Of a stretch of DNA of 54,857 bases, positions 171 through 50,128 are shown in pieces. A program made the translations under genes and the position numbers. Each line of letters begins with the position of its first letter. Within the stretch, counting starts at the first letter, position 1. The DNA is taken from positions 1 through 54,857 of IMG/VR virus record IMGVR_UViG_3300045988_021436; one strand, 5' to 3'. The DNA comes from a virus. A model generated the notes under the pieces. That model had not been told where the DNA came from. It worked only from the letters and a program-made list of their open reading frames with translations, and did not search any database.

Positions 171-548
171 ATTTTCAGAAATATCATTTGATAATTCTGT
201 GTCACCACTTTCATATTTTGTTTTCTCTAACGTAAAATCAATGCACGCTTTCAAAAAACCTTTCAACCCAAGTTTTGCACCAATGTGTAATTTGGTTGTT
301 GCACACTTATCCTCTTGCTCAAACAACTCTCCCTGTGCCTCCACATCTGCAAATTCAGATATTTCGCCATTCTCATTTACAATTGGGTAATAATTCAACA
401 CATCCCACGGGTTCTTACAAAAGTGCATAACACCAGCATTGCAAATGTCTTTTCCGTTTTCTTCGTATGTTGTATTTTCCTTGTATTGTTTTCCACGACA
501 AGTCATATCCTTATTAAAGCCCTTATATCCTTTGATTTTTTCGCTCAT
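1..548 (-). CDS. 5' part of a junction-spanning gene. An N-terminal domain resembling DUF7666-type phage proteins (MSEKIKGYKGFNKDMTCRGKQY...) is followed by nonapeptide repeats. The gene continues at 54822..54555.
   Basis: The ATG at 548-546 overlaps the TGA of the upstream gene (ATGA). The frame is open to base 1 and in phase with the ORF ending at 54555 once the 35-bp overlap is removed, giving about 271 aa. It is missing from the ORF track because it runs off the window edge. Confidence 0.7.
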   Translation of the reverse strand, partial: MSEKIKGYKGFNKDMTCRGKQYKENTTYEENGKDICNAGVMHFCKNPWDVLNYYPIVNENGEISEFADVEAQGELFEQEDKCATTKLHIGAKLGLKGFLKACIDFTLEKTKYESGDTELSNDISENSAQIGSSGDSAQIGSSGDSAKIGSSGNYAKIGSSGDSAKIGSSGNYAQIGSSGYSA

Positions 549-1309
549 GCAACTACCTCCATGTCCGGCAAAATATCCTCTGCCTTTAACTTCTCGTACA
601 AGAACATTCTTCCTTTCTGCGTCCACACGGTAGATGTCCTTGTGCCGGTTGCTCCGTTCGTTTTCTCATAGTCATATGTTTTGTTCTGCACATACCCCTT
701 GCCTTGATATTCCGAATATAATATCCATTGGCTACCAACTTTCCGTTGAATACCAATGCCGGCAAGAATGTTATTGAACCGAACTGCAGTCATACCGTAC
801 TCCTGTGCGATCTGTGTAACCGTCATGCTATCCTTGGAAGATAAAATGCGGTCGACATAATCAACTTTCGGTGTCATGTCTGTAATTACTGCATCCATCT
901 GTTGAACGGTTCCTTGAAGTTCTTTAACTTCCTGTTCTTTTGCCGCAAGTAGCTTCTGTGCTTCTACTACTGCTAATGCAATCAATTCAGCACCGCTAGG
1001 CACTTTAGATTTAATAGCATCTTCCATTTCATGAAAACGGTTAATGTACTTTGCCGTAAATTCTGTACCCTTTACGCCTGTAAGCTTGTGTGCAATAAAC
1101 TCACAACCTTTCTTTGTTACTTGATAGCACGGCATCTTCTTATTCTGTGTATTGACATATGTACTTTCTGTAAAGAAATCGGACTGGGGAATATTCCCCT
1201 CTCCTAATTGACCGGCATATCTTCTAATATCTTTCAACAATTCGTTGTGTTGCTTTCCTACCATTTCAGCCACTTCTCGGCTGTCAATAAATTGTTCTAA
1301 TTGTTCCAT
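545..1309 (-). CDS. Rha-family phage regulatory protein / antirepressor (Rha-like N-terminal domain plus KilAC/ORF6C-like C-terminal domain)
   Basis: The N-terminus IDSREVAEMVGKQHNELLKDIRRY matches the Rha family signature. The C-terminal part MTVTQIAQEYGMTAVRFNNILAGIGIQ is typical of antirepressor C-terminal domains. The gene is second in the early leftward operon. Confidence 0.65.
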   Translation of the reverse strand: MEQLEQFIDSREVAEMVGKQHNELLKDIRRYAGQLGEGNIPQSDFFTESTYVNTQNKKMPCYQVTKKGCEFIAHKLTGVKGTEFTAKYINRFHEMEDAIKSKVPSGAELIALAVVEAQKLLAAKEQEVKELQGTVQQMDAVITDMTPKVDYVDRILSSKDSMTVTQIAQEYGMTAVRFNNILAGIGIQRKVGSQWILYSEYQGKGYVQNKTYDYEKTNGATGTRTSTVWTQKGRMFLYEKLKAEDILPDMEVVA

Positions 1310-1359
1310 CTGGATCTCCTTTCTTAAACTTGTTTTTTCCGAACTACAATTCTTGATTG

Positions 1360-1551
1360 CTACTTCATAAAAAATTCAATGTTTACATTGAAATAATCAG
1401 CAATCAATTTCAACTTATCTGCCTTTGGCGTGTATCGACCGTTTTTCCATTCAGACAGTGTTGCAGTTGAAACTCCTGTGTCTGTTGCAACTCGGTAAGG
1501 TGTTACCTTTTTCTCGTTGCACAAATCTTGAAACTTATCATAACTAAACAA
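1360..1551 (-). CDS. Cro-like Xre-family HTH regulator (63 aa)
   Basis: HTH segment GVSTATLSEWKNGRYTPKADKLKLIADYF. It is the first gene of the leftward operon and faces the cI-like gene. Confidence 0.75.
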   Translation of the reverse strand: MFSYDKFQDLCNEKKVTPYRVATDTGVSTATLSEWKNGRYTPKADKLKLIADYFNVNIEFFMK

Positions 1552-1578
1552 AATATCAACCTCCTTTCCAATAAGTGG

Positions 1579-1607
1579 TTGACATTAACTAAGATTTCTT
1601 ATATAAT
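1579..1607 (+). promoter_or_regulatory. Rightward sigma-A type promoter for the cI-like gene (TTGACA-17-TATAAT)
   Basis: TTGACA at 1579-1584, a 17-nt spacer, and TATAAT at 1602-1607. The spacer contains the operator word CTAAGATTTCTTA. Confidence 0.7.
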
Positions 1608-1732
1608 AACAATCGCCAAAAAGATTATTACATAGAAAAGATAACTATGTCACTCGCACTTATTTTTCTTAGATAGATAATAGCATAGTTTTCTTAGTGT
1701 GTCAAGATAAAATAACTAATTTTTCTTAGTTG
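1589..1732. promoter_or_regulatory. Operator set: four same-orientation copies of TTTCTTA(G/T), two of them inside imperfect palindromes
   Basis: Copies at 1595-1601, 1665-1672, 1690-1697 and 1722-1729. CTAAGAtTTCTTA lies at 1589-1601 and AACTAAtttttcTTAGTT at 1714-1732. Confidence 0.55.
1677..1705 (-). promoter_or_regulatory. Leftward promoter for the cro-like/Rha operon (TTGACA-17-TATTAT on the minus strand)
   Basis: Reverse complement of 1700-1705 is TTGACA, followed by a 17-nt spacer (cactaagaaaactatgc, containing an operator word). Reverse complement of 1677-1682 is TATTAT. Confidence 0.65.
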
Positions 1733-1750
1733 TTTTTTAGGAGGGAAATT

Positions 1751-2062
1751 ATGTATGAATTATTCCAAAAATTATTAGACGAAAAAGGTGTTTCTGCATA
1801 TGCAGTGGGAAAAGCAACAGGCATAAGCACCGCAACATTAACATCTTGGAAACAGGGGAAATATACGCCAAAGAAAGAAAATTTAAGAAAAATTACCGAC
1901 TATTTTGGTGTAGATAGAGATTATTTTGAGACAGGAGAAAAGTTTGGTTCTGTACCAACTTTCTCACCAGATCACATTGAATTAATTTCTGCATACGATA
2001 AATTGTCAAATGCGGATAAACTTGCTATAATGCAAATTATAAAAAGCCTAAGTGCTAAATAA
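1751..2062 (+). CDS. cI-like Xre-family HTH repressor (103 aa) with no S24/LexA-type peptidase domain
   Basis: The ATG at 1751 is preceded by taggaggg. The ORF-track start at 1730 is a TTG upstream of the RBS. The HTH GISTATLTSWKQGKYTPKKENLRKITDYF is nearly the same as the recognition region of the cro-like protein. Confidence 0.75.
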   Translation: MYELFQKLLDEKGVSAYAVGKATGISTATLTSWKQGKYTPKKENLRKITDYFGVDRDYFETGEKFGSVPTFSPDHIELISAYDKLSNADKLAIMQIIKSLSAK

Positions 2063-2077
2063 GAGGGAGGAATTTAT

Positions 2078-2788
2078 ATGGCATTAGTTAAATGTAAAGA
2101 ATGTGGAAAGGAAATATCTGATAAGGCTAAAACTTGCCCTAATTGTGGTTGCCCTATTGAGGATGAATTTGCAAAAACCGAAACCACGAAAGATATTCAA
2201 ACAGAACCGAAAAAGAATGAGAAAAAGAAAAATAGTAAATTAAGTACCATTGCGGCAGTGTTGGCATTTTTTACTGTAACTTCTCCGATAGCGTTTGTGG
2301 TAGCAATAATTGACTTGCTAAAAAGAGATAAGGAACACAAGCATACAGGCTCATGGTTCGCAATCATCTTCTTTATTGCACTTTTTTGGTTATTTAATGA
2401 CAATAAAGACAGTTCGTCAAGCAATAACTCAAAATCAGAAATCCAAGTAAATAAATTGCTTTGTGAAGATGAAAACATATCCGTGTATCTTGACCATATA
2501 GAAAACGGGAAAATTTACGTTAAGTATGTTAATCATTCAGACGAAAATAAAAATGTGTGCTATTCAGACTTAACTATAAATGGAACACGATATTATAAAG
2601 GGATATTTGTTCAAGAAGTTTATTCAAATGACGATTATATACAGAAATTAGATTTGTACGATAAAGAGGGAAACAAAGTAAATTACAACTACGAAAGCGG
2701 AACAATTTTAGGAAAATTTGAATACGCTGGTACAGGAATTAGTCTTATTGAGGAATTAGAGTTTAAAGAAACGGATTTTAACAAATAA
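2078..2788 (+). CDS. Zinc-ribbon membrane protein co-transcribed with the repressor (possible lysogen-expressed exclusion or moron gene)
   Basis: N-terminal CKECGKEISDKAKTCPNCG zinc ribbon, two hydrophobic segments (LSTIAAVLAFFTVTSPIAFVVAIIDLL and WFAIIFFIALFWLF), and the RBS agggagg. Confidence 0.5.
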   Translation: MALVKCKECGKEISDKAKTCPNCGCPIEDEFAKTETTKDIQTEPKKNEKKKNSKLSTIAAVLAFFTVTSPIAFVVAIIDLLKRDKEHKHTGSWFAIIFFIALFWLFNDNKDSSSSNNSKSEIQVNKLLCEDENISVYLDHIENGKIYVKYVNHSDENKNVCYSDLTINGTRYYKGIFVQEVYSNDDYIQKLDLYDKEGNKVNYNYESGTILGKFEYAGTGISLIEELEFKETDFNK

Positions 2789-2790
2789 AA

Positions 2791-2822
2791 AGAAAGCAGA
2801 GGAACGAACCTCTGCTTTTCTT
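2791..2822. terminator. Bidirectional intrinsic terminator between the convergent cI operon and the small LexA-controlled gene
   Basis: Stem GCAGAGG (2796-2802) / CCTCTGC (2809-2815) with loop aacgaa. An A-run lies on one side and a T-run on the other. Confidence 0.75.
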
Positions 2823-2928
2823 ATCCCCATTTTTCAATTGCACATCTAATAAATTCAAGCAAGTATCTTATCAATTTAACGTTCTCAATCTCATCAATCA
2901 GTTTCTTGATTTCCTCTTTTTCTTTCAT
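2821..2928 (-). CDS. 35-aa protein MKEKEEIKKLIDEIENVKLIRYLLEFIRCAIEKWG (candidate SOS-induced antirepressor or small regulator)
   Basis: The ATG at 2928-2926 lies 5 nt after the SD GGGGGTG. It sits directly downstream of a consensus promoter carrying a LexA box and is too short for the ORF track. Confidence 0.55.
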   Translation of the reverse strand: MKEKEEIKKLIDEIENVKLIRYLLEFIRCAIEKWG

Positions 2929-2962
2929 AATTCACCCCCATGTAGCGTTTTTGTTTTCACCC

Positions 2963-2991
2963 ATTATAGAACATATGTTCTTTCTTGTCAA
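2963..2991 (-). promoter_or_regulatory. Perfect consensus promoter on the minus strand (TTGACA-17-TATAAT)
   Basis: Reverse complement of 2986-2991 is TTGACA, the spacer is 17 nt, and reverse complement of 2963-2968 is TATAAT. Confidence 0.8.
2968..2981. promoter_or_regulatory. LexA binding site (Firmicute Cheo/SOS box, GAAC-N4-GTTC) within the promoter spacer
   Basis: AGAACATATGTTCT is a perfect 14-bp palindrome with GAAC at 2969-2972 and GTTC at 2977-2980. Confidence 0.75.
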
Positions 2992-3095
2992 TATAAGCGG
3001 GGCAACAGGAAAACGCCAATCAACCCATTGCCCCTTGCCAGAACTTGAAGCCCTCTTTTTGAGGACACGTTCATTGTACCATATACGTTATGAAA

Positions 3096-3145
3096 ATATA
3101 CCTATATTCATTCGTACTTTTCCGACACGATATACCTATATTCAT
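3096..3145 (+). repeat. Two exact 16-bp direct repeats ATATACCTATATTCAT, 34 bp apart, just outside the left inversion repeat
   Basis: Copies at 3096-3111 and 3130-3145. The region is non-coding. Confidence 0.9.
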
Positions 3146-3180
3146 CTTTTGTAGCATTTTAATTTTATTGTTTATTATTT

Positions 3181-3786
3181 TACAATAAATAGTAATTTAA
3201 CAAATGATTATACTCAAAACAAAGCACTCACCACTGGTACAAATATAATTTTTTCAAAAGATCTTTCTGCTGGTACATATTTAATTGTCGGCGAAGCACA
3301 GTTAGTTGGTACAATTAGCGGAAGATATGATTTATACGTAGAAGGTAACGGAACATCCGCTGGAGATACTTTTCCTAATGATTATAGTTATCCATGTGCT
3401 TGTGCAATGTTGGTATTATCTTTTACCGAACAAAAAACAATTCAATTAAAAATTTGGCAAACAGCAGTTACAACATTAAATAATGCACGACTAATAACAT
3501 TGCGCTTAAAATAATTTAGGAGTGAAATTATCGTACATTACAATAATGAATCATGATTGGTACATTGTTTGCAGTAAACGGATTGTAGAAATATACAAAT
3601 AAATTTCCAGAAGAATCAAAAGCATGTCCTATCACAAATTGATAATCATATGTCTGTGATCTTTCGATATTAACATCTAACACAAAGATATTTGATACAC
3701 CTATTTCTGATGGTGTAATTATACAATATGAATCTGACATGTTTTTTAACACAATTTTTCTTTTGACTAAATTACTATTTATAGTA
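3181..3786. other. Putative invertible DNA segment (about 0.6 kb) bounded by 19-bp inverted repeats
   Basis: tacaataaatagtaattta at 3181-3199 and taaattactatttatagta at 3768-3786 (its reverse complement with one mismatch). The perfect core is 15 bp. Confidence 0.7.
3182..3514 (+). CDS. Promoterless, start-less alternative tail-fibre C-terminal cassette (TINSNL-TNDYTQNKALTTG...ARLITLRLK*)
   Basis: The frame is open from 3155 to the TAA at 3512-3514, with no in-frame ATG/GTG plus RBS near its 5' end. The first codons duplicate the TINSNL segment of the fibre gene. Confidence 0.65.
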   Translation, partial: TINSNLTNDYTQNKALTTGTNIIFSKDLSAGTYLIVGEAQLVGTISGRYDLYVEGNGTSAGDTFPNDYSYPCACAMLVLSFTEQKTIQLKIWQTAVTTLNNARLITLRLK

Positions 3787-5372
3787 TCTATCTTTTCATG
3801 TAACACCTTTCCTTGATTTGCCGACAAGGATTTATCTGCATCCTGGCTTGTAAGATTATCTACTACCGGTCTCCATGTATCTGGTGGAACAGACCATGTA
3901 CCATCAGATCTTAAATATCTATTAGATTCTCCTGCACTCGGTGCAGGCGCATACCCTGCTGTGCCCGCCGACGAAGTATTTGCTCCTTTTAGTGCAATCC
4001 AAGTATCATTATCTGTAAATTTTGCATTTGCTGGCACATCACTATTTACTGTATGACCATTGACTTTTGTTGCGGAATCTGCGCTTCCGGCATTTTTTGC
4101 GTACTTAACACTTTTGTTTGAATCAGGTGTATTATCTACATTTCCTAGACCAATATTACTAGGGGTTATCTCTACATTACCTCTCCTATAACTAGATTCT
4201 GACGATCCTTTAATTCCCGTCACAGGGCTTCCAGCTAACACATCCCATTTACCACCAGAAGTTTTATAAACATTACTTCCTGCCGGTTCTGTAATTCCTG
4301 CACCCTCTACAAAATCTGACGTTGTAACAAATTCATCTGAAATGTTGTACATATCTCCATCTGTTACAGAAGAAACACTTGGAAGATTAGAAAACAAAAC
4401 AGTACCCATTGGTCTTAATGCTCCGCTTAAAGATTCTGAAATGTTTTTCACTTGATCGTAATACTTTTTAGAATTTGTTTCAGATACAAGTGCATTGTTT
4501 GCACTTTGTAAAGCGTTACTTTTCGATTCTGCCGCTGACGAAGAACTGTTGCTTGCACTTTGTTCTGATAGTTTAGCGTTTTCTTCACTCTTTTTTGCTT
4601 CTGTTTCGCTAGATTTTGCATTTGATTCAGAAGTGCTTGCGGCTAATTCACTTTTCTTAGCAGAATCACTACTATTTAATGCTTGTTGGCTATAATACTT
4701 AGAATTATCTATATCCTCATTTTCTCTACTGTTAGTTCCACCAATAGCATAGCTTTTAGATAATTTTGCGCTACTTTCAGCAGATTCTTTATATTGCTTA
4801 GCGTTGTTTTCGGATTCTGTTGCCAAATCACTTTTTTCTTTTGCTAATTCTGCCGCCGTAGTTGCTTTTGCTGATTCTGACTTGATATCAGCAAGGTAGT
4901 TAGGTTGCAATTTGCTTTCTGTAATGCTTCCGTCTTTGACAGTAAATGAATACGTCTTATTCACTCCGCTACCGCTAACAGAAACAGCTATTTGGTCGCT
5001 TTCGTTAAATGTAAGCACAGGTATCATAGAACCAATATTAGCAGTAAATTGTGTACCATCAGATGTTGTCATGGTAAGTATTCCGCTAGGTGACAATTCA
5101 AAGGTGACAGGTATTTTCTCAATATTTAAGTCGAACATAATCTTTGAGCCATCTTGCTTTTCAACAGTAATAACACCTGTTGTTTCATCCATAGTCCAAT
5201 TCTTGACCATGTTATTTACCGTTGTCTGATTGGCTTTTGTACTATCCTGTTCAATTACCCTGTTATCCAAGTCATCTATTGCCTTATCCATGCGGTTTAG
5301 GTTTGTTTCGTTAATTGCCGTGGATGTATTCGGATAATTTTTCCAAATAATTCTACTGTAAACCTTGTTCAT
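3528..5372 (-). CDS. Tail fibre protein (614 aa)
   Basis: It is the last gene of the tail operon. It has a long Ser/Ala/Glu/Lys-rich coiled central region and Gly-rich segments typical of fibres. Its C-terminal 79 aa lie inside the invertible segment. Confidence 0.75.
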   Translation of the reverse strand: MNKVYSRIIWKNYPNTSTAINETNLNRMDKAIDDLDNRVIEQDSTKANQTTVNNMVKNWTMDETTGVITVEKQDGSKIMFDLNIEKIPVTFELSPSGILTMTTSDGTQFTANIGSMIPVLTFNESDQIAVSVSGSGVNKTYSFTVKDGSITESKLQPNYLADIKSESAKATTAAELAKEKSDLATESENNAKQYKESAESSAKLSKSYAIGGTNSRENEDIDNSKYYSQQALNSSDSAKKSELAASTSESNAKSSETEAKKSEENAKLSEQSASNSSSSAAESKSNALQSANNALVSETNSKKYYDQVKNISESLSGALRPMGTVLFSNLPSVSSVTDGDMYNISDEFVTTSDFVEGAGITEPAGSNVYKTSGGKWDVLAGSPVTGIKGSSESSYRRGNVEITPSNIGLGNVDNTPDSNKSVKYAKNAGSADSATKVNGHTVNSDVPANAKFTDNDTWIALKGANTSSAGTAGYAPAPSAGESNRYLRSDGTWSVPPDTWRPVVDNLTSQDADKSLSANQGKVLHEKIDTINSNLVKRKIVLKNMSDSYCIITPSEIGVSNIFVLDVNIERSQTYDYQFVIGHAFDSSGNLFVYFYNPFTANNVPIMIHYCNVR

Positions 5373-8244
5373 ATTTATCCATCCTTTCTGTTAGTGTTGC
5401 TAGTTGTTGTTTTAGGGTGTCTATTTCTTGTTGCTGAATTTGAGCCATTTTAATTAGATACGGGGTGAATTTTGAGTAATCTACCCCTGGGAATACATAT
5501 TCCTCACCATTTAGAAAGTGTTCTTCATAATCCTTATCTTTGCAAACGGCAACCGATGGTATTATATCCTTTACCTCTTCGTAAATTACACCCCTTTGGT
5601 TTTTGCTTCCTCCGTTGATATAATCAAAAGATACTACATTTACGTATAATATCTTTTTTGCTTCTTCGTTTGATAGCGGTTCAATATTCTTTTTTGCAAG
5701 CCTTGTGGATATGTTGGAAATGTTCGATGCCTCAATCGTTCCTCCGAAAAACATATAATACCCCTCATTCCAATCACCTGCCATCGAATCATGTCTAACA
5801 TAAAATGGTATATGCACAACATCATCATCACCCAAAAACCCAAAACCTATATGGATATATCTGGAAGTATGGCTACTTGATGTATTAACCATTGCAACAC
5901 CGTCCGATGTAAAAGTACCTCCGCTCATACCCTCAAAGTTATTTGATATGGTAAATGTTCCAGAGTCAAATCTTCCATATTCCAAAGAATTTTTAATAAT
6001 GTTCAACAAAGTTGCATTGATTTCTCCGCTTACTTTTGCACCGTTGCATACCATATTTCCATCTTCATCTACACTAAAATTGGTAGAATCAATAGAAATA
6101 TTCTTACTTGTAAGGTTTATAGAACTATTCGCAATAATATCAATTATATCCGAAGCAGTAAGAGAAATATTATCCGCATCTACTGTAAATTCCGTGCCAT
6201 CTTTTGGGTCGCCCGTCAACGCAACCTCTACAATTCTTCCGTTTGCATCTACTTTTAAAACTATCTCTTGCGCCTGTTGCGAAATCTCGCTAGATAAGTT
6301 TTCAGATATTTTTTTGAACGTATAAGTTGGCTCATTTAATAAAATTGCGACTTGCCTACCGGAAAGCCAATGAAAACCGTTACACTTCCACGCTTTTCCC
6401 GTTTCTTGGTCTAAATAAAATTCGCCGTATTGTATGGTTTCTGAATAAACATATGGTTCTCCTGTTTCCATGTGTCCATCTATTCCATATCCGTACTCGC
6501 TTATATTTACTTCGTTTCCGTTAGCGTCTACTGTTTCCCATGTGTCTTGTGATTTTGCAACAGTGCTTTCTATACCCTCTTTGCTAATTTCAATAGCACT
6601 GTTCATTTCTTCTGTCGTTGAATAATTCTCAAATTTTGAATTAACAGATGCAGTTATGCTTTTTTCTGTCTCTTCTATTGATGATTGAATTGTCTCCGTT
6701 GTCTTTTTTAATGGTCCGTTATACTTAAATATATATTTTTGATTTTCTGCATCATAAACAGGATCCCAACTATCACCCGTATCAACCTTTACATATAATT
6801 CTTTTTCACCACTTGGCGATATTCCACTTGGAGCAGATGTGCCATATATGATTTTCCATCCGTTTTCTTCGTATTTGCTTACGTCCCACTTGATTTGGGT
6901 GGAAGAAACAATACTTGTGATACTTTCTGCGGTTTGCTTAATTTCTGACTTCAACCCTTTTTCAACATTGGCAATTGTAGAACGTGTTTCATCAATGCTT
7001 CGTTCTAATACATTACTTCTGCCTTGTAATTTCTTAATCTGACCGCTAGTAGAATTTACATCAACCGACCTGTATTCTTCTCCGTTAGATTCAAATTCAT
7101 CTGTAAGAGATTGGCAACCTTTTAATGTACGATTTATAACATAAGAATAAAGAATTGCACTATTCGTAACAATCTTGATAATATCCCCAACAGTAACACA
7201 CGGATTTCCTATCACATTGGCTTTAATCGGTGTATATTTGGCTTTTTCTATTACTGATAATATATTTGTACCAACTGTCTCTAATTCCGCATCAGAAAGG
7301 CTATATGTTAAAAAATTGCTATTTACAACATACTTGTTTCCATCAGTACCCACCGTCATTCCAATATCATTATCTTCTTGAATAATCTGCACTTGTGTAA
7401 TTGGTTGCACATCAAAATCTTCATACTCTGTTGCTTCGTATTGCCAATTGTAAATAACAACTCCTGTATTATCACTTGCCGGGTATAAATCATTTTTAGG
7501 GAACAAATCGTCAGCCGGGAACAATTCCTTTGCAATTGTTTGCAATGTCACATATTCAAACTTTCCGTCTCTGTTTATGTGACCAAAACAACCATTTAAT
7601 TCGCATATAGCTTCAATTACCGTACTTCCGCTAAGCGTTTCTCCGATAGTGCCATCTTCGTTAGGAACAATTTCTATTGTCTTACTTACAACCATTCCGT
7701 CATTAGGCAATGTAACATCTACTTGATCTATACCAAAGTGCAAAAATAAACTATCTCTAAATTTCTTTAATGTGGTTGTACTGTATGTTACAACTGTTGT
7801 TTCGTTGCCATCTTCATCTGTTGTGGTTGTTGTATTTGCCTTAAACTGATTATTGTACCATGCCGCTACATCTGCATGAATAATATCGTACATACTATCA
7901 TAAGCAACTATATCAATGAAATCTCTGTCAGCCGTAGGCTTTGCACTTGCAATCTTGTACTTACCTATCTGCATAGGACTATCTGCCTGACCGCCTAAAA
8001 CCTCACTAATTGTAATCTTTTGCCCTACAAGTCGGTTAGGAATCGCAAATATACGAAACTTAACACAACTAGCTTCACACGCACCAAATCGCAATTCATC
8101 TTCCGAACAAATGCTTTCCTCTAACTCAAATTCTTCACTATAAATCATTGAGTTATCAAGAATTGTTCCATTTTCTAATTCAATTTTTAATTGCTTATCT
8201 ATACTGTCTTGCCAATATAAATCCTTATGGATATAATCAATCAC
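5353..8244 (-). CDS. Tail-associated protein (Tal-like N-terminus) with a C-terminal S74-type intramolecular chaperone domain
   Basis: 963 aa, positioned after TMP and a Dit-like gene. The C-terminus (...SNISTRLAKKNIEPLSNEEAKKILYVNVVSFDYI...IDTLKQQLATL) resembles the endosialidase / tail-spike chaperone auto-cleavage domain. Confidence 0.65.
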   Translation of the reverse strand: MIDYIHKDLYWQDSIDKQLKIELENGTILDNSMIYSEEFELEESICSEDELRFGACEASCVKFRIFAIPNRLVGQKITISEVLGGQADSPMQIGKYKIASAKPTADRDFIDIVAYDSMYDIIHADVAAWYNNQFKANTTTTTDEDGNETTVVTYSTTTLKKFRDSLFLHFGIDQVDVTLPNDGMVVSKTIEIVPNEDGTIGETLSGSTVIEAICELNGCFGHINRDGKFEYVTLQTIAKELFPADDLFPKNDLYPASDNTGVVIYNWQYEATEYEDFDVQPITQVQIIQEDNDIGMTVGTDGNKYVVNSNFLTYSLSDAELETVGTNILSVIEKAKYTPIKANVIGNPCVTVGDIIKIVTNSAILYSYVINRTLKGCQSLTDEFESNGEEYRSVDVNSTSGQIKKLQGRSNVLERSIDETRSTIANVEKGLKSEIKQTAESITSIVSSTQIKWDVSKYEENGWKIIYGTSAPSGISPSGEKELYVKVDTGDSWDPVYDAENQKYIFKYNGPLKKTTETIQSSIEETEKSITASVNSKFENYSTTEEMNSAIEISKEGIESTVAKSQDTWETVDANGNEVNISEYGYGIDGHMETGEPYVYSETIQYGEFYLDQETGKAWKCNGFHWLSGRQVAILLNEPTYTFKKISENLSSEISQQAQEIVLKVDANGRIVEVALTGDPKDGTEFTVDADNISLTASDIIDIIANSSINLTSKNISIDSTNFSVDEDGNMVCNGAKVSGEINATLLNIIKNSLEYGRFDSGTFTISNNFEGMSGGTFTSDGVAMVNTSSSHTSRYIHIGFGFLGDDDVVHIPFYVRHDSMAGDWNEGYYMFFGGTIEASNISNISTRLAKKNIEPLSNEEAKKILYVNVVSFDYINGGSKNQRGVIYEEVKDIIPSVAVCKDKDYEEHFLNGEEYVFPGVDYSKFTPYLIKMAQIQQQEIDTLKQQLATLTERMDKYEQGLQ

Positions 8245-8672
8245 CGTGTTTTACCTCCATATCCGATAAATGCAATTCGTGTAGAGTTATATTTGATAAC
8301 GTTTTCATCTGCAAAATACAAGGTTGGTGTAATGTCCGGTACATAACATTTTTGAGTTACATATTTATTCAACTCCGGAATCCATGCCGTTACATTGCAA
8401 CTCTTTTCAACCTTATCAATGTATTGTTGTTCCAATTTACTGAAAAACTCTGCATAATCTTCATCTGTTTTCATAGGTGGTATCTCGAACTCTGTCTTAA
8501 TAATCGTGTTTTTTAGTGCCGTTCTATGTAACATTCCGTCTGTATCTCTGGTTGAATCTAAATCTTGACCGGAATTAAAAGGCTTATATGTGTTAGCAGA
8601 CATCCACTTAAGAGGTATCTTCCAATCTCCTACCTTTATCAGATAACCGCCATAATTACTTTTCTTTGCCAT
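8241..8672 (-). CDS. Small distal-tail-type protein (call based on position)
   Basis: 143 aa, immediately downstream of the tape measure gene and overlapping the next gene. Confidence 0.4.
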   Translation of the reverse strand: MAKKSNYGGYLIKVGDWKIPLKWMSANTYKPFNSGQDLDSTRDTDGMLHRTALKNTIIKTEFEIPPMKTDEDYAEFFSKLEQQYIDKVEKSCNVTAWIPELNKYVTQKCYVPDITPTLYFADENVIKYNSTRIAFIGYGGKTR

Positions 8673-8724
8673 GTAATCACCTCAATAAAAAGCACCTACC
8701 CAATCATGAGTAAGTGCTTAATTT

Positions 8725-11700
8725 TTAAAAGCTGTATGCTTCTTTTCCTGTTCTGTTGTAATAATCTCTTGCGTAAGACCTACTAGCCTTGCCTATGTCA
8801 TTCTTTGAAATGCCAAATTCTTTCGCAAGAATACCTTGTAACAATTGGTTCTGTTCTCTTAAGTATTCCATTTCCTGTTGTGAAGTTGAATAAATCGCAT
8901 CCCGAATACCTGTAATTTCTGCCCCACCGGCTACGGCAGTTTTACCGCCCACAGTACCGGCAATCTCCGGTATTCCATTTTCGCCAGCCATAAACAAGCT
9001 GTATTTTTGAGGATAACCACCGTTGGCATATCCTTTAAAAGTTGGAACATCATTAATTTTTTTACCTACAAACGGTATTTTATCAACCATATTATTTATA
9101 CTTCTTGCTATTGAGTTCCACGCACGTTTTATAGGTGCCGTAAAATTATCTGTAAATGCAACACTTAACTTCTTTGCTTTTCCAACAATAGAATCCCACG
9201 CATTTTTAACTTTTTTAAGCTTAGAAGAAACACTGTCTTTAAACGAAACCTTTAATTTCTTTGTTCCTTTTTTTATTCCATTCCACTGCTCTTTTATATT
9301 CTTTAATTTATCCGCACCGTCAGCTTTTACGTTTGCAACAAAATCTTTCGCTTCATCTGTTTTATTTGCAAACCAATCTTTTATCTGTTGAGCTTTCTCA
9401 TCAATTTTGCCAACAACATTCATTGTAAATTGAATGACGTTTCCCGGTAATGCTTTCATTTTTTCTACAATATCACTTATCATTTGTGCCCCGGCATTTA
9501 CAACCTCATCGGTTGTTATCGTTTCATCACCGCTTACCCACCTAAGTGCCGGTGTTAATGATATGTCAACCACCGCACCATCAGATATTGCATTTCCTAT
9601 TTCTGACCATGAAATATCCTTTGTTAGCAAGCCCTTTATAATATCGCCAATACCGCCTTGCGCTTCTTCGCCCGTTACATCCTCATAGTATTGCTCTCCA
9701 AACTTCAATCCCATAACAAGTGCTAACGTTGCCGAAACAACAAAGCCACCAATAGGAAGCAGTTTAGGAAGTGTCGATGTAAAAAATGCAGTTAATCCAG
9801 GAACAAGGCTAGTTAGCGCCCATGTCTTTAACGATGCCCCCAATGTTCCCGCAACAGCCATTCCGCCAATGGATGCAATTGGTAACGCAATTGAAAGCCC
9901 AACTAGCGAAACACCTATTGTTCTTGAAATGGCTATCGTGTCTCCATCTTTCATTATCCAAGCAGCTATACCATCCGATATGTTTTGTATTCCTTGCACA
10001 TTATCATATAGCCAATTGCCAATCTTAAAACTTGTAATTGCCGTTGCAATAGAAAGGCTTACTGCAACAGACAAAGGAACCGTTTTCTCTCCAATACCTG
10101 TTGAAATCTGCGTTTTCATAAGTGTGTTTAATGCTCCGGCAACAATTTCTTTACCACCATGAAACCACTTAAACGCACCGACCGTAATAGCAATTGTGTC
10201 TAAGTCTAAGTTTGTAAGAAACTCCATGCCGCCTTTTAAAATATCAGACCATGATATTTTTTTCAGTGCGGTAAGAACTGTTGTTTTAATTCCATCTACC
10301 CAAACATTAAGCGTGTTCGCCAATGATGCAAAATCAAACGTCTGGAAGAAATTATTGATACCGCTTGCGATAGATTCTCCAAAGTCCTTAAAATCAAAAT
10401 TTTCGCCGAATGATAGAGCGGCATATATAGCAGTGTTCAAAGAACCGGCAATTGTTTTTCCTACTGCTCCGAATAACTCCGGACTAATCAAACCATTAAG
10501 GAAATCTGCTAATCCTTTACCAAAGTTTCTAGCGCCCTCATACACATTATTCCACTGGATTTTATTGAAGGAATTTGTCAGTGTAGTGCCGATATATTCT
10601 CCCAATTCTTCGAGCGTGTCAATACTACTTTTAAACAATCCCTCTGTTTCTTCTAGCTTGTATTTCAGCCCGTTTGTGTCTTCTCCGCCGTCACCTGTTC
10701 CACTTCCGCTACCTTTACCACCAGAACCGCTACCGCTTTTATCTGTTGTTAATACGTTTAATTCATCAACACCCTGTAACTGTTGTCTTAACTTCTTTGC
10801 ATTGTCAGCAGCTTTTCCGGTTCCACTTGCCAAATCATCTGCGCTATCAGATGCAGTTTCAAAATCATCCGCAATTGAACCGGCTTGAATTTCAATCTTC
10901 CAACCGAATATCTTACCTAATGCATTTACCACGTTATTAGCAAACGTTATAACCGCACTCATAGCCTTATTTAAGGCTTGAACAAGTGGTTTTAACATAT
11001 TTATAAAGGCATTACCTAAAACAGCACCTAAAGCCTTTACTTGCTCTTTTAGAATACGGATTTGGTTCGCCCAATTCTGTGAAGTTCTGGCAAAGTCACC
11101 CTGTACATTTGCGGTATTTTCCATTACATACTGATAACGCAACATAGTTTTCTGCAATTGTGTCATGGAAGAAATATTCGCATCTAACCCATTCTTCATT
11201 GCGTACTCTTTTAATGTATTTTGCGTCAAGTCAATACCAAACTTACGCATAGGCTCTGTTTCGCCTGTAAACACACTCCAAAGACTTCTAGCCGCATCTG
11301 CTTGTTCTACATTATAGAAAGATGCTAAATCTGCCGACAATTCAGTAAGGCTAACTGACATATCAGACATCTTCTTAATAGGTGCGCCCATTGCGATACC
11401 CATAGCTTGAAATCTACTAGCAGTTTCTTTTGCAGTTAGTTCAGAAATACCGTATGCCTTTATAGCAGATTTCGAAAACTTCTCTACTAGGTCTGTATAT
11501 TGACCGAATGTATTTACAACAACATTCTGCACCTCTGTTAAGTCGGATGAAATGTCAATTGCACTTTTTACCTTGCCTACTGCTCTAAATAGTAACCAAT
11601 AAGACGCATATACTTTTCCTATTGCCGCCGCAAGGCTAAACGAACTTTTTTTCGCTTTCACAGTAGACGAACTAAACAAATTAAGAGAATTTGTCAGTGA

Positions 11701-12249
11701 CTTAGCCGCACTACCGCTGGCAGAACCGGTTCTAGCCAATTTTGCGAGTGCATTCGTCATGTCAATAAGGTTTTGGCTTACTTTTGGAACACCGGCAAGG
11801 GTATTCATAAGACTTTTCATTGCAGTTGCTAATTTAGGTATATTATCAATTGCATTTGTTGCAGACTTGTAACCCAACTGTGATATTCCCTTTGCCAGAT
11901 CAGAAATATTTTTAGATGTTTCTGCCGTTCCCGCAATCTTGCTTAAGGACTTACCCATTTGTGTCATTGCGGATGCGGCACGGTTAATACTAGCCGTATC
12001 AATCATTGACATTTTAGTTATTCCAGTTGCAATCCTTGTAAAATCAGCTCCTTTAACAGAACTCATACCTTGCATTGAGGTTGATAATTTTTGAACACCA
12101 TTCGCAAGCCCGGTTAAATTTCCTGTATTTAAAGTACCTAACGATGCAGAAAGTTTCGATATGTTGTTAATCAGCTTATCTATTTGGTTGTTTGCCCTAG
12201 TTGCACTTGCGCTGATTTTTATATCCAAGCTATCTACTTCTGCTCCCAT
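8725..12249 (-). CDS. Tape measure protein (1174 aa)
   Basis: Called from its size, its position after the chaperone pair, helical Ala/Ser/Leu-rich repeats, hydrophobic central segments and a Gly/Ser-rich linker. Confidence 0.9.
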   Translation of the reverse strand: MGAEVDSLDIKISASATRANNQIDKLINNISKLSASLGTLNTGNLTGLANGVQKLSTSMQGMSSVKGADFTRIATGITKMSMIDTASINRAASAMTQMGKSLSKIAGTAETSKNISDLAKGISQLGYKSATNAIDNIPKLATAMKSLMNTLAGVPKVSQNLIDMTNALAKLARTGSASGSAAKSLTNSLNLFSSSTVKAKKSSFSLAAAIGKVYASYWLLFRAVGKVKSAIDISSDLTEVQNVVVNTFGQYTDLVEKFSKSAIKAYGISELTAKETASRFQAMGIAMGAPIKKMSDMSVSLTELSADLASFYNVEQADAARSLWSVFTGETEPMRKFGIDLTQNTLKEYAMKNGLDANISSMTQLQKTMLRYQYVMENTANVQGDFARTSQNWANQIRILKEQVKALGAVLGNAFINMLKPLVQALNKAMSAVITFANNVVNALGKIFGWKIEIQAGSIADDFETASDSADDLASGTGKAADNAKKLRQQLQGVDELNVLTTDKSGSGSGGKGSGSGTGDGGEDTNGLKYKLEETEGLFKSSIDTLEELGEYIGTTLTNSFNKIQWNNVYEGARNFGKGLADFLNGLISPELFGAVGKTIAGSLNTAIYAALSFGENFDFKDFGESIASGINNFFQTFDFASLANTLNVWVDGIKTTVLTALKKISWSDILKGGMEFLTNLDLDTIAITVGAFKWFHGGKEIVAGALNTLMKTQISTGIGEKTVPLSVAVSLSIATAITSFKIGNWLYDNVQGIQNISDGIAAWIMKDGDTIAISRTIGVSLVGLSIALPIASIGGMAVAGTLGASLKTWALTSLVPGLTAFFTSTLPKLLPIGGFVVSATLALVMGLKFGEQYYEDVTGEEAQGGIGDIIKGLLTKDISWSEIGNAISDGAVVDISLTPALRWVSGDETITTDEVVNAGAQMISDIVEKMKALPGNVIQFTMNVVGKIDEKAQQIKDWFANKTDEAKDFVANVKADGADKLKNIKEQWNGIKKGTKKLKVSFKDSVSSKLKKVKNAWDSIVGKAKKLSVAFTDNFTAPIKRAWNSIARSINNMVDKIPFVGKKINDVPTFKGYANGGYPQKYSLFMAGENGIPEIAGTVGGKTAVAGGAEITGIRDAIYSTSQQEMEYLREQNQLLQGILAKEFGISKNDIGKASRSYARDYYNRTGKEAYSF

Positions 12250-18883: not shown

Positions 18884-20458
18884 TTATCGATCTGTTCTAC
18901 TCTTATCAATCATTGGGCTGTTTTCTATTTGGTCGGAAAGATCTTGCATAGTTCTTTCTTTATTTGGTTCTTTTTCTCCATCTCCGCCCTCTGCTTGATT
19001 GGTTGTATCCTTCTTTATAACACTATCTTGATACTCTCTTACCATTTCACCGCTTCTTGAAACAACATCATTAGGGTCATCAAAAAATGGTATTGCGCCA
19101 ATCGTATCTTCAAGGCTAAAACCGTGGCTAATCAATGTGGCAATTGAATTTACCTTTGTTGACATTTCGTAAGTTTTTTGCCTTTTTATATTGGGTTGCA
19201 CATCTCTTGATCTTAATTTTAACAGTGGATTGTTTGCTTCTATTCCACTTGATTGCTTGATCGCTTCCAAAACAACCTTAATCTCTTCCATTTTGCAGCC
19301 ATCAGTTATCAATTGTTGTTTTGCTGCTGCCGTTTCCGCTTGTGACCATCCTGTAGCATCACTCATTGCAACGCCTGTACTTCCACCGCTATTATCGTTT
19401 CTTTGAGGTACGTTGCATTTTTGCAATATCACTTGTCTTCTATATTGTATGTTATTTAGCATTCCGCTATAATCATATTGAACAGCCAATGGATTGATAA
19501 ACGGTTGCTTTCCGTCTTGCGATGTGTAAGTCAATATCCATTCATTTGTTCCCGGTTTTTTTGTGACCTCAACCTTTTTGCCGTTTTCATCTTCTATAAT
19601 TTCTTTTGGAAATTCGACATCATTACCGTGCCATATAGCCTGTGTATTTTGATCTACATCATTTGTAAAGTCAGAAATAAGTAAGTTGAGATTGTCCATT
19701 TCCGATATTTGACGTTCAAAGCATCCCATACGATCATAAGAACGAACATATTCAACAATTGGTATTTTATGTAATGGGTTTTCTTCTCCGTTTCTTTCAA
19801 GGAATCCCCATTTGTTTTTTTCTTCGTTTTTTCCATTTGTTATTTTTAATCCGTCTGTAATCTCAAACCTTTGATCTTTTGTAAAACATGTATAAAATCT
19901 TTTTCCGGTATTCTTTTCTTTCCTATACGTTCCGGCAAGAATAATTCTTCTATCGCTATAATACGTTGATCTAACAACAAATGTTATCCTTGGGTCTAAT
20001 ACATCATATGTAAAATAACTATCTCCATCCTCATATTCTGTATTAACATCAATATACACATATCCCACGCCGCAAATTTCTATATATCTAGCAAGTTCCT
20101 GTTGTTTTTGGTTGTAACCTTGTGACTGATAACATGTATTTAATTCCGCTATTGCTTTTGTGATGTTTTTATTACTTTTATCACCGTTTTGAACAAATGT
20201 AATAGGGTTACCCCATTTAAACCCAAGGTTAAATTCCGTTACTTCGTTTGCTACATTATCTACGCATCGGCAATCAATATCCGTCCTTGTTTTCTTCGTT
20301 CTTTGTAACGGTTGTATTCCGGCATCATAATCAAGAAGAAATTGTATTCTTGCAGAATTTTGGTCATGTTCAAGAATCGCACTTCTCAAAACGGATATTA
20401 CATTTTCTTTTGTTACTTCTTTTACATCTGTATAAATCACAATTCTTCCCGTTTGCAT
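18884..20458 (-). CDS. Portal protein (SPP1 gp6-like)
   Basis: 524 aa. The N-terminal ...ENVISVLRSAILEHDQNSARIQFLLDYDAGIQP pattern and the gene's position support the call. Confidence 0.8.
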   Translation of the reverse strand: MQTGRIVIYTDVKEVTKENVISVLRSAILEHDQNSARIQFLLDYDAGIQPLQRTKKTRTDIDCRCVDNVANEVTEFNLGFKWGNPITFVQNGDKSNKNITKAIAELNTCYQSQGYNQKQQELARYIEICGVGYVYIDVNTEYEDGDSYFTYDVLDPRITFVVRSTYYSDRRIILAGTYRKEKNTGKRFYTCFTKDQRFEITDGLKITNGKNEEKNKWGFLERNGEENPLHKIPIVEYVRSYDRMGCFERQISEMDNLNLLISDFTNDVDQNTQAIWHGNDVEFPKEIIEDENGKKVEVTKKPGTNEWILTYTSQDGKQPFINPLAVQYDYSGMLNNIQYRRQVILQKCNVPQRNDNSGGSTGVAMSDATGWSQAETAAAKQQLITDGCKMEEIKVVLEAIKQSSGIEANNPLLKLRSRDVQPNIKRQKTYEMSTKVNSIATLISHGFSLEDTIGAIPFFDDPNDVVSRSGEMVREYQDSVIKKDTTNQAEGGDGEKEPNKERTMQDLSDQIENSPMIDKSRTDR

Positions 20459-36953: not shown

Positions 36954-38186
36954 TTATGCCATTAACGCTTCGTTGATAGCTTTCGCTATTTCTTTGTCTG
37001 ACTTATTCAGCTTGTAATAATATCTTCTTGTTGTTTCTATGTCTGAATGCCCCATCTGGTCTATGATAACACTGTCCGGCACCTTTGCATCTATTAGCTT
37101 TGTTCCATATGTCGTTCTTGCCTTGTGCATTGATCTGTATTCAATACCCACATTGTCGCATATGACATATAGTTTTCTGCTAAACGCTTGCGCCTTTACT
37201 CTCTTTCCGTTTTTGCAAAACACCCATTCCCCAAACGGATTCATTGATCGAATTTTTTTAATTATCCGTATTGCTTCATCCGTCAGAACAACTTCCCTGT
37301 ACCCGGCATCCGTTTTTGGTAATTCTTGTCTCTCAAAAACATATCTTCCGTCTTCGCCACGGTATCTAACCTCTGTACCAGAAACAGAAATATATTTTGG
37401 GTAAACATCTTGCCATCTTAATGCTGCTATTTCTCCGGCTCTCAAACCGGTTTGAAATGCTAATGCAATCCCAAGTCCAATTATTGTTGGGTTTTCCATG
37501 ATAAAACTTTCCACCATTTTTTCTTCGTTTGAGAAAAATACTTTTTGATGCGGGTTTATCATTACCCTCTTAAATGACCGGTTGGATATGTCTAAGTCTC
37601 CCATGAAATTTGTTATGCTTAAATCTGTGTAACCATGTTTTTTCGCATACTTCCAAATTCCGTTTATTAAAATCCGCATATCTCCGTATGCCTTGCTTGT
37701 CAATTCCAAATCAGCAATCGTGACTTTTATAAATTCTTCCAGTGTATCTTCACCAATGTATTTGATTTTCTTATCCGCAATCGGAATTGATTTGTTTTCA
37801 AAAAACCTCTTGAAATTTGTGTGGTATTTATCATTTGTCTGTGGTGTTATCTCTTTCAGCCTTAATTTGTTTTCAATCCACATTCGGAAAACATCTGAAA
37901 CATAAGGTTCTTCTTCAACAGACTTATAATAATCCACTATTGCACTATTCAACTCCTCTTTTGCATTTCTCCTTATCAACCTCTTTCCTCTTTTGGCTTT
38001 CTGGTCTGGGATGTATGTATAATACTTTCCGTCTTTGCCTTGCCAAATCTTGTGTTCGTGTTGTTCTAAAAATTTTTTTCTTTCGCTCATTTCGATATTT
38101 TTTTGAATGGTGCTACGGTCAATAATACCATTTTCAATTGCATATTTCAACAGGTCACTGTCTGATATTTCTTCCACCAACATCAC
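36954..38186 (-). CDS. int: Tyrosine recombinase / phage integrase (410 aa)
   Basis: ...GLRAGEIAALRWQDV..., ...HKARTTYGTKL..., ...MGHSDIETTRRYY match the catalytic R...H-x-x-R...Y boxes. The N-terminus is SAM-like. Confidence 0.9.
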   Translation of the reverse strand: MMLVEEISDSDLLKYAIENGIIDRSTIQKNIEMSERKKFLEQHEHKIWQGKDGKYYTYIPDQKAKRGKRLIRRNAKEELNSAIVDYYKSVEEEPYVSDVFRMWIENKLRLKEITPQTNDKYHTNFKRFFENKSIPIADKKIKYIGEDTLEEFIKVTIADLELTSKAYGDMRILINGIWKYAKKHGYTDLSITNFMGDLDISNRSFKRVMINPHQKVFFSNEEKMVESFIMENPTIIGLGIALAFQTGLRAGEIAALRWQDVYPKYISVSGTEVRYRGEDGRYVFERQELPKTDAGYREVVLTDEAIRIIKKIRSMNPFGEWVFCKNGKRVKAQAFSRKLYVICDNVGIEYRSMHKARTTYGTKLIDAKVPDSVIIDQMGHSDIETTRRYYYKLNKSDKEIAKAINEALMA

Positions 38187-49037: not shown

Positions 49038-49388
49038 TCACACCTCAATTTCATCATCCTGTGGAAACTGAAAGATAGCATTGTTAATAAAATCTACTTT
49101 TGACGGCTGATTTTCTGCTCGCACAATAACACCGCCTTTCTTTAATCTTTCAAATTCCTTTTCCACATCAAGTGAAACATCAACATTCTGCATTACGATA
49201 GGCATACCGGTATATGTATCTATCAACATTTTCATAGCCTTAAACGCCTTTTCTTCTGTTGAATAACTACCCATTGAATATCTTTCATCACCAACTTTGG
49301 CAATAACACTTTCATATTCAACATAAACAACTGCCACTTCATAAGGAATATCAATTCTTCCACTCTGGCTAATAATTCTCATAATCAA
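49038..49388 (-). CDS. Hypothetical protein
   Basis: ORF in operon context. Confidence 0.45.
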   Translation of the reverse strand: MIMRIISQSGRIDIPYEVAVVYVEYESVIAKVGDERYSMGSYSTEEKAFKAMKMLIDTYTGMPIVMQNVDVSLDVEKEFERLKKGGVIVRAENQPSKVDFINNAIFQFPQDDEIEV

Positions 49389-50128
49389 CCCTCCTGCATG
49401 AACTCCGGCTCTGCCGATTCGGTTACTTCTTCCGGTTCAAATTCCTGTGAATTAGCATTTTCTGCGATATCCTTTTGAACCTGTGCCTGTAAATCTTCCA
49501 TAGGGTACTCGTTGAAATCGTTATCCTCGATTTCTTCCTTCGTGTAAATTCCCATTGTTAGTTCTGGGCAATTCAGACTGCTAAAGAATGAAGCGGCTCT
49601 GTATCTAAGCATAAGCTGCGGCATCGTTTTCCATTTGCTACCATTTTTATCAAGCCACCCCTCGTCCTTTGCCATCTGCATATTGACTTCCATACCTTCA
49701 ATTCTTCTACCATTCTTCATCGTCCAAGCAACGCAAGAGTACGGTTTTCCATCCTTATCTTTTGTTTCGTCGTACTGCAACTCCATGTCAAATTTCCGAC
49801 TTGCGTTGATAGAAGCAATCAGAAACTTGCTGCTCCAACTTGGTTTTCCCTGTATAGGGTAAAGATTCTGCATAACCATAAGAGGGCTGATATTCATTCT
49901 CTGCGCCTGTTCAATCGCGATCAAACAGTTAGATGGATTCTTCTGATACGTCTGTGGAACAATAGTTGATTCTGAAAGTGCCTTTGCCATTTGCATAGCC
50001 ATGATGAAATTGTCCGATGTCCCGAAAATTCCAAGACTGTAATCCGTTACTTTATTTGCCTGCTGAACTGCTGTCTGCTCTTTTTTCTCGACTAACTGTG
50101 TATTCTCTTCCATAATTATTTTCCTCAC
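49385..50128 (-). CDS. RecT/Red-beta-like single-strand annealing protein
   Basis: Called from its position in the recombination module and from ...MAKALSESTIVPQTYQKNPSNCLIAIEQAQRMNISPLMVMQNLYPIQGKPSWSSKF.... Confidence 0.5.
   Translation of the reverse strand: MRKIIMEENTQLVEKKEQTAVQQANKVTDYSLGIFGTSDNFIMAMQMAKALSESTIVPQTYQKNPSNCLIAIEQAQRMNISPLMVMQNLYPIQGKPSWSSKFLIASINASRKFDMELQYDETKDKDGKPYSCVAWTMKNGRRIEGMEVNMQMAKDEGWLDKNGSKWKTMPQLMLRYRAASFFSSLNCPELTMGIYTKEEIEDNDFNEYPMEDLQAQVQKDIAENANSQEFEPEEVTESAEPEFMQEG

Follow-up and report, generated by a model that had tools for sequence, protein, structure and literature searches.

The DNA analysed here, referred to as the window (54,857 nucleotides; positions 1-54,857 of IMG/VR record IMGVR_UViG_3300045988_021436), comprises one phage genome of about 55 kb, and its tail-fibre gene ends inside a short segment that is probably an active switch between two alternative fibre tips. 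The fibre open reading frame (ORF; 3528..5372, minus strand) encodes 614 amino acids (aa), with a PF22337 domain at aa 503-533 and a C-terminus reading ...HEKIDTINSNL followed by a 79-aa tip. Convergent with it, a plus-strand frame is open from 3155 to 3514, and 13 bp separate the two stop codons. This second frame reads HFNFIVYYF-TINSNL-TNDYTQNK...RLK, its 120 codons dividing into nine of flanking sequence, six for TINSNL, 104 for a different tip and the stop. No start codon stands at its head, the earliest in-frame ATG, GTG or TTG being a Met codon just 34 codons ahead of the stop. All of these features had been reported in a preliminary description of the same DNA and agree with it on recount, apart from the length given there to the second tip (105 aa). 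Below, the constant part of the fibre is called the shaft, the 79-aa tip the VKRK tip and the 104-aa tip the TNDY tip; coordinates are collected in Table 1.

Table 1. Positions of the fibre-locus features and of other genes of the window that are discussed in the text
Feature	Position	Strand	Basis or remark
Constant fibre part (shaft), aa 1-529	3786..5372	-	ORF; Phage_fiber_rpt helix directly before the junction
Gene-internal repeat arm, encodes (D)TINSNL; proposed crossover site	3768..3786	-	Repeat search and core comparison
Expressed tip cassette (VKRK tip)	3528..3767	-	79 aa, VKRKIVLKNMSD...HYCNVR and stop
Spacer between convergent stop codons	3515..3527	.	13 bp; no space for a further gene or terminator
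Silent start-less tip cassette (TNDY tip)	3200..3514	+	104 aa, TNDYTQNK...RLITLRLK and stop
Outer repeat arm	3181..3199	+	Perfect core 3185-3199; universal 13-nt core 3187-3199
Conserved non-coding outer flank ...TATTATTTTAC	3155..3180	+	Open frame HFNFIVYYF without a start
Intrinsic-terminator-like hairpin, fibre strand, outside the segment	2793..2818	-	Could end the late transcript in either orientation
963-aa tail protein	5353..8244
Dit (DUF6711)	8241..8672
Presumed tape-measure gene, 1174-aa ORF	8725..12249
SPP1-type portal	18884..20458
Tyrosine integrase, 410 aa, only site-specific recombinase in the genome	36954..38186	-	PF00589, 1.4e-20
RecT-like protein	49385..50128		Weak RecT-family match

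Both copies of TINSNL are encoded by the arms of an inverted repeat (3181-3199 and 3768-3786), 19 nucleotides (nt) long and complementary at 18 of 19 positions, with the one mismatch noted previously. In the gene-internal arm the perfect core spans 15 nt (3768-3782), of which 13 nt, AAATAGTAATTTA (3768-3780), are universal among the relatives described below. Within the 54.9-kb window the two arms are the only occurrences of the perfect 15-mer ATAAATAGTAATTTA, and a third copy of the core, such as a possible attP-like site near the integrase gene, was found nowhere in it. The codon phase is the same in both arms, so that reading from the shaft through the outer arm continues without interruption into 110 aa of TINSNL plus tip; the flipped state would encode a continuous fibre of 639 aa, and the claim that a flip fuses the shaft in frame to the second tip is thereby borne out.

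In simulation, a 19-nt inverted repeat with at most one mismatch occurs in 3.4% of 2.6-kb regions, and the repeat by itself is only mildly significant. Its placement at matching codons of two open frames, together with its conservation in relatives, is far beyond chance. The case for inversion is therefore built on phase and comparison rather than on the repeat alone. A chance inverted repeat beside a spurious open frame, which the simulated frequency would allow, can be dismissed with near certainty, refuted as it is by the comparative data: the shared phase, the conservation, the homologous cassettes found elsewhere and the inversions documented below. With the terminator-like hairpin (2818->2793) placed beyond the segment and nothing between the two tips, either orientation would be expected to give a complete late transcript, which this hairpin could terminate.

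Sister genomes carry such segments in both orientations

A scan of viral contigs returned 61 related fibre loci. The closest of these (L001) is 100% identical to the window's fibre over residues 1-535, exactly up to the L of TINSNL, and beyond that point its expressed tip differs, as does its start-less convergent cassette; a perfect 22-nt inverted repeat bounds the two, and it shares its core and outer flank with the window. The outer flank TATTATTTTAC precedes the outer site in all window-type phages. A protein search combined with cluster look-up yielded many further fibres with shafts 78-100% identical and unrelated tips, the junction always being (T/A/D)(I/L)NSNL. Among relatives whose tips differ, the constant part of aa 1-529 is 94-100% identical. 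In three pairs (P0165/P0169, P0034/P0167 and P0033/P0163) the shafts are identical down to private substitutions, yet the tips differ. Clustering at 90% identity lumps such same-shaft fibres with unrelated tips (622, 649, 614 and 611 aa) into one cluster. Among the relatives, the repeat measures 15-26 nt in the window's group and about 50 nt in L049, and relatives with a single site also occur (L081-L083). A search of the GenBank phage collection gave no DNA match to positions 2000-9000, and the silent cassette matched no protein there.

A homologue of the VKRK tip also occurs in a different arrangement. On contig L093 (2884-3144) it is a stand-alone, co-directional ORF that closely follows a fibre-like gene of 617 aa; a GIY-YIG endonuclease gene lies downstream, and there is no matching repeat. 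The homologue may be either a relic or an independently expressed protein.

The comparison of related genomes for both orientations, which the preliminary description had proposed, gave a positive outcome in two sets of sister phages. L079 and L080, which come from two sequencing runs (SRR31227307 and SRR31227326), were compared over 10-kb stretches. Their flanks are collinear at 100% identity over 1-6562 and at 99.9% over 7318-10444, and the 791-bp segment between them (6545-7335) is 100% identical and reversed, such that the tips NGHRSAWK... and NDYIVVKD... trade expressed and silent positions. L091 is in the same state as L080. Likewise, L062 has SNAIGGG expressed and SNNIKIY silent, and L077 and L078 show the converse; here a 534-bp segment is reversed at 97.2% identity within flanks that are collinear at 97-98%. 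These sister genomes share the Dit protein, the outer flank and the core with the window. Common assembly k-mers are longer than these repeats (15-25 bp), and the reversed segments are therefore unlikely to be products of mis-joining at a repeat. No recombinase gene was found in the sister genomes in the 3.5-5.4 kb downstream of the fibre (to the contig end) or in the 5-10 kb upstream.

The breakpoints of the inversions in the sister pairs fall inside the repeat, and its 13-mer core is invariant in all 47 copies collected. The codon ahead of it varies (ATA in 30 copies, TTA in nine, CCA and GAA in three each, TGA and AGA in one each), and the tips that follow it form 24 clusters at 60% identity or more, seven of these tip types being found both expressed and silent. 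Even cassettes that differ by a dS of about 0.25 have the same nucleotides at the synonymous positions of N-S-N-L, which points to selection on the DNA and not only on the peptide. Moreover, one site in L074 (-2286) consists of the left flank of site +205 of L072 and the right flank of site -3184 of L072, joined exactly at the core; the core is therefore the exchange point. The cores of the window are intact and identical to the active ones.

These properties of the core bear on whether a dedicated enzyme is needed at all. Host RecA, or the RecT-like protein of the phage, might invert the segment by homologous or annealing-based recombination between the short repeats, and a genome that encodes a weak RecT-family match and an SSB offers some of the machinery. 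The repeats would stay identical in any case, because both arms encode INSNL, and their variation in length among the relatives is in keeping with such a process. However, repeats of 15-25 bp are a very short substrate for RecA or RecT, and still L079 and L080 are identical apart from an inversion. The core is also fixed at every synonymous position in its 47 copies, a constraint at the DNA level, and the same core is the exchange point in multi-site shufflons that carry a recombinase. We consider inversion without a dedicated enzyme to be quite improbable.

The silent cassette is maintained as a protein. Between the window and L074 the ratio of nonsynonymous to synonymous substitution (dN/dS) of the TNDY cassette is 0.31, and between L072 and L074 it is 0.24, values that indicate purifying selection on a tip that was never seen expressed. 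A plus-strand cassette degraded by stops in related genomes, next to a repeat that is not conserved, was one of the grounds that the preliminary description had offered for abandoning the switch; the silent cassettes are intact instead, and the repeat is kept. Structure prediction of both tips, a further suggestion made there, was informative for one of them. For the silent tip AlphaFold gave an all-beta model with eight strands, at low confidence (pLDDT 57), and for the expressed tip a model (pLDDT 41) that is unusable. A Foldseek search with the silent-tip model gave no match at E <= 0.001; its top matches were carbohydrate-binding modules and phage fibre tips with TM values of 0.5-0.6, matches that are no more than suggestive of, and compatible with, a receptor-binding head.

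Candidate recombinases and the proposed mechanism

The preliminary description stated that no serine invertase of the Gin/Cin/Hin type is encoded in this genome, and we came to the same result: tblastn of the window with Hin and Gin gave a best E of 2.2, and PF00239 was absent from the approximately 30 ORFs scanned. It made no mention of the tyrosine integrase at 36954..38186. A diversity-generating retroelement was likewise not indicated by anything in the data, no search having been aimed at one.

A different type of enzyme accompanies the same cassettes in other elements. Homologues of the TNDY tip in the protein collection number two (94% and 85% aa identity), both short stand-alone calls in silent positions. 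In L072, L074 and L075 the TNDY cassette lies 90 bp from the gene for a divergent 324-aa tyrosine recombinase (PF13495 and PF00589; the rec72 type). The 3.5-kb contig L072 has six copies of the core around its recombinase gene, heading several start-less cassettes and the 3′ end of a fibre gene, and reads as a six-site shufflon. The VKRK tip has a 70-aa, 100% identical homologue on L092, a stand-alone ORF in a silent position. That contig in fact holds the entire segment of the window (594 bp at 93.9% nt identity), with both cassettes and both cores; both cassettes are silent there, beside a 324-aa recombinase (rec92) that is 46% identical to rec72. The TNDY part of the segment has 97.6% nt identity with L072. 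Thus, both cassettes of the window are shared with recombinase-bearing shufflons. With an NF040815 score of 230.9 bits (cut-off 220) and a match of 9e-33 to the XerC-like structure PDB 4a8e, rec72 is assigned to the Xer-like, arm-less tyrosine recombinases.

A six-frame search of the window with a profile of six fibre-associated recombinases detected neither a member nor a remnant of this family, the integrase being matched weakly (E = 4.4e-7), and tblastn of the window with rec72 gave no match. Because such a recombinase is absent from the genome, the enzyme would have to act in trans, from a co-resident phage or the host, or else the integrase would have to do the job.

We propose the following model. 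The promoter, the start codon and the shaft lie outside the invertible segment (approximately 3187-3780). Two convergent tip cassettes lie inside it, and each starts with INSNL, the junction peptide that the core (A)TAAATAGTAATTTA encodes. Site-specific recombination of the conservative type between the inverted cores (13-15 nt) would flip the segment and fuse the shaft in frame either to the 79-aa tip, giving the 614-aa fibre of the present state, or to the 104-aa tip, giving a fibre of 639 aa. The switched state of the window's own pair would be marked by the junction ...GATAGATAC(T/A)ATAAATAGTAATTTA-ACAAATGATTAT. The enzyme is most probably one of the small, arm-less Xer-like tyrosine recombinases whose genes adjoin these cassettes in related elements. 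We regard it as likely that the 0.6-kb segment is a working two-cassette inversion switch in this sense, most plausibly operated by an Xer-like enzyme in trans. By analogy with known systems, a switch of host range would presumably follow.

The near-identity of the window's cassettes with those of recombinase-bearing elements points to recent exchange, and hence to shared host cells, in which a co-resident donor of the enzyme would be plausible. On this basis the flip-flop could be a dependent module, switched by the Xer-like recombinase of a co-resident shufflon-bearing phage or of the host, a possibility that we stop short of calling likely. If it is correct, the host-range switching of one phage is controlled by another mobile element, and both kinds of phage share a pool of tip cassettes, at least 24 in number, with a common 13-nt site as the point of exchange.

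Alternatively, the same switch could be flipped by the phage's own 410-aa integrase, serving also in integration or dimer resolution, with no foreign enzyme involved. This integrase is the sole site-specific recombinase of the genome, the sister phages invert with no recombinase near the segment, and window-type contigs are all about 55 kb with none in a long chromosomal contig, so that the integrase has no obvious role. The profile match given above and the lack of a match from rec72 nevertheless mark it as only distantly related to the cassette-adjoining recombinases. It has about 105 extra N-terminal residues ahead of its Xer-like region, an extension that we take to be typical of integrases with an arm-binding domain, and neither near its gene nor elsewhere is there a third copy of the core. 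The integrase is therefore an unlikely flipper in our estimation.

Several observations weigh against a working switch with its enzyme in trans. The cognate Xer-like recombinase is truly absent from the window, a trans-acting donor was not found, and the recombinase-bearing contigs are short (1.7-7.6 kb), leaving the elements that they belong to poorly defined. L079 and L080 were viewed over 10-kb stretches, and a recombinase elsewhere in those genomes is possible. The window's own pair of tips was seen in one orientation only, in the window itself, which is the same genome as L064 (12 kb at 100% identity; ENA ERZ28576014, SAMEA4545404), and in the independent L065 (ERR11029155). A metagenome scan with the shaft junction gave no match, and one with the outer flank gave two more loci, the window's pair in the flipped state not being among them. 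The TNDY tip was fused to a shaft in none of about five independent copies in a protein index that is not exhaustive, and a search for a chimera of shaft and silent tip returned no expressed chimera and two short stand-alone calls, in a word-indexed search that missed the window's own fibre cluster. Finally, in a neighbouring phage group, which has the same junction peptide T-L-N-S-N and a different core DNA (CTAAACTCGAAT; group core ACTCGAAT), 10 of 10 contigs have the 68-aa cassette KQDKNCYIYN... in the silent position, which looks frozen. The members of this ACTCGAAT-core group range from an intact recombinase with one site (L025, L038), through two sites with a broken recombinase (L002-5, L014, L029), to two sites with no recombinase (L007, L010, L011 and others), and can be read as a decay series.

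Taken further, the missing recombinase, the single orientation in both independent genomes, the unexpressed TNDY tip, the decayed or frozen states of the ACTCGAAT group and the single-site relatives would fit a frozen relic. The block would have been captured from a shufflon-bearing phage and would no longer flip, its second tip being silent cargo or, at most, raw material for recombination with other phages. However, sister phages that lack a recombinase are found in both orientations, the cores of the window are indistinguishable from active ones, and the silent cassette is free of stops with a low dN/dS. A relic in this sense is in our view very improbable, as is the role of its second tip as mere raw material.

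The recombinase family is also found outside fibre loci. At least 521 homologues occur on viral contigs, and a scan of genome contigs with rec72 gave a single, irrelevant 26% match and yielded no host. Taking multi-copy inverted 12-mers around recombinase homologues as the mark of a fibre shufflon proved too broad and was given up, one such locus, L096, being an hsdS locus. On this viral contig (6197-14336) the gene order is hsdM-hsdS-recombinase-hsdS'-hsdR, with an inverted partial hsdS', four copies of an inverted 12-mer and a recombinase 42% identical to rec92; it is a phase-variable Type I restriction-modification hsdS shufflon with a recombinase of the family found at fibre shufflons. Two isolated Clostridia phages, Terrisporobacter phage TPELB_ph1 (PP197244 17645-18640) and C. 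perfringens phage phiCp-D (MW478291 21639-22616), each have, immediately behind the last tail gene and ahead of the holin, a gene for an Xer-type recombinase resembling rec72 (34-39% identity) and annotated 'integrase'; no convincing cassette repeats were found beside either gene, and TPELB_ph1 has a second, larger integrase.

Related systems, host and genomic setting

The closest described counterpart is the Rin shufflon of Bifidobacterium prophages, which has a constant receptor-binding-protein gene, start-less Rv cassettes and an 11-bp rix repeat, and whose arm-less, XerD-like invertase Rin is not the integrase of the phage (Mavrich et al. 2018, PMC6109161). In some of these prophages a 500-bp two-segment inversion has no flanking recombinase, and an enzyme acting in trans was proposed (PMC6109161). 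Rin was later reported in prophages of Eggerthella lenta (PMC8778435). A literature search for the exact phrase 'Rin shufflon' found no description of such a system in phages of Firmicutes. The window system likewise has a constant N-terminal receptor-binding-protein gene with start-less variable C-terminal cassettes that can be fused in frame, and every cassette is headed by a short repeat, conserved and asymmetric (13 bp against 11 bp for rix), that serves as the exchange point. An arm-less Xer-like recombinase distinct from the integrase is present in L072, L074 and L092 but not in the window, and the orientation differs between related genomes (L079/L080 and L062/L077), the window's own pair having been seen in one orientation. 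Unlike in the Rin shufflon, the site is AAATAGTAATTTA rather than TTCCCTAACCC, the fibre and tips are unrelated, the host phylum differs, the window's host being probably of the Lachnospiraceae type, and the window has only two cassettes and no recombinase in cis, whereas L072 has six sites. The likeness of rec72 and rec92 to Rin is one of domain architecture compared with the published description. Apart from alternative orientations, which are seen in its sister phages, the window seems to share every tested Rin-type feature except a recombinase encoded in cis and three or more cassettes.

The preliminary description had placed the locus with the Mu G and P1 C segments and with shufflons. 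The flip-flop of tips stands; the type of enzyme would be that of a tyrosine-recombinase system (shufflon/Rin) and not Gin or Cin. As in Mu G/Gin, P1 C/Cin, e14 P/Pin and p15B Min, the constant fibre part lies outside the segment and the alternative C-termini inside it; Mu and P1 are also two-state and switch host range, and Mu G is a precedent for two tips. Serine-invertase switches have their own crossover sites, a Fis enhancer and a tail-fibre assembly gene inside the segment. In all four of these systems the serine invertase adjoins its segment, whereas the window has a 13-nt core and no serine recombinase. Unlike Mu G and P1 C, its segment also has no tail-fibre assembly gene (U/U'), the stops being 13 bp apart. 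By its sequence features, then, the window does not belong with the serine-invertase fibre switches. The R64/IncI shufflon (Rci, PilV) resembles it in using a tyrosine recombinase, in its partly conserved short sites and in swapping C-terminal adhesin tips, with a multi-site version in L072. The R64 target is a plasmid pilus adhesin and not a phage fibre, and its sites and protein are presumably unrelated in sequence to the window system. The hsdS inversion loci (L096) have the recombinase family in common with the fibre shufflons and place their repeats in a conserved peptide junction of a modular specificity protein, although their target is a DNA-specificity subunit rather than a virion protein.

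Names attached to the sources of proteins with 44% identity to the fibre, and a Hadza name on one sample, point to a Lachnospiraceae bacterium of the human gut as the probable host. Host range is determined by the tips of tail fibres. The locus presents a directly testable case, among uncultured Firmicutes phages of the human gut, of programmed tip switching by DNA inversion: natural genomes occur in both states, and a single 13-nt site links a large pool of interchangeable cassettes. Noteworthy here is that sister genomes still flip although this genome lacks the cognate recombinase. Knowing which enzyme flips the segment would help to show whether phages rely on one another or on the host to switch host range. 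There are consequences for annotation as well. Silent tips escape gene callers or are wrongly called as small ORFs, tip variants disappear behind one representative when proteins are clustered at 90% identity, and small recombinases behind tail genes get annotated as integrases. Furthermore, host-range prediction from a single assembly sees only one of the encoded specificities.

The window begins and ends in a 27-bp tandem array, TGTGCGGAATCTCCACTACTGCCAATC (1-172 and 54791-54855, about nine copies in all). Since the array is present at both ends and the gene order of relatives runs across them, the window is evidently circularly permuted, the assembly having broken inside the array. The contig of L001 ends in the same array, which could represent iterons or a packaging region. 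All contigs of this phage type measure 54.6-56.2 kb, none lying inside a long chromosomal contig, and fibre relatives at 44% identity come from contigs as long as 590 kb; the phage may persist mostly unintegrated despite its integrase and its cI/Cro/antirepressor module.

Tail genes were assigned by size, position and the calls made in relatives (Table 1). An Amidase_3 gene lies downstream of the portal gene, and relatives have capsid genes between the two. An N-acetylmuramoyl-L-alanine amidase gene (12315-12863, minus strand) immediately precedes the presumed tape-measure gene, and in relatives the head-tail module contains an r1t-type holin. The fibre gene is not followed by a lysis cassette. 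The early and replication genes on the minus strand, which are followed by the integrase gene and then the portal gene, encode the RecT-like protein, SSB, AAA_23, a methylase and a G39P-like loader, the N6/N4 DNA methylase gene of the early region lying at 42297-43145 (minus strand). A PAPS-reductase-like gene (phrog_424) occupies 45676-46719 (minus strand), and two tRNA genes, both on the minus strand (26251-26337 and 26694-26767), are those for Ser (gct) and Gln (ttg). Adjoining the outside of the invertible segment is a sigma-70-type promoter with a perfect TTGACA-17-TATAAT (2991->2963). Between this promoter and the strong terminator hairpin at 2818->2793 lies a 34-aa ORF (2928->2824; MKEKEEIKKLIDEIENVKLIRYLLEFIRCAIEKWG), which is also present in L001, and other relatives have small genes called at the equivalent position.

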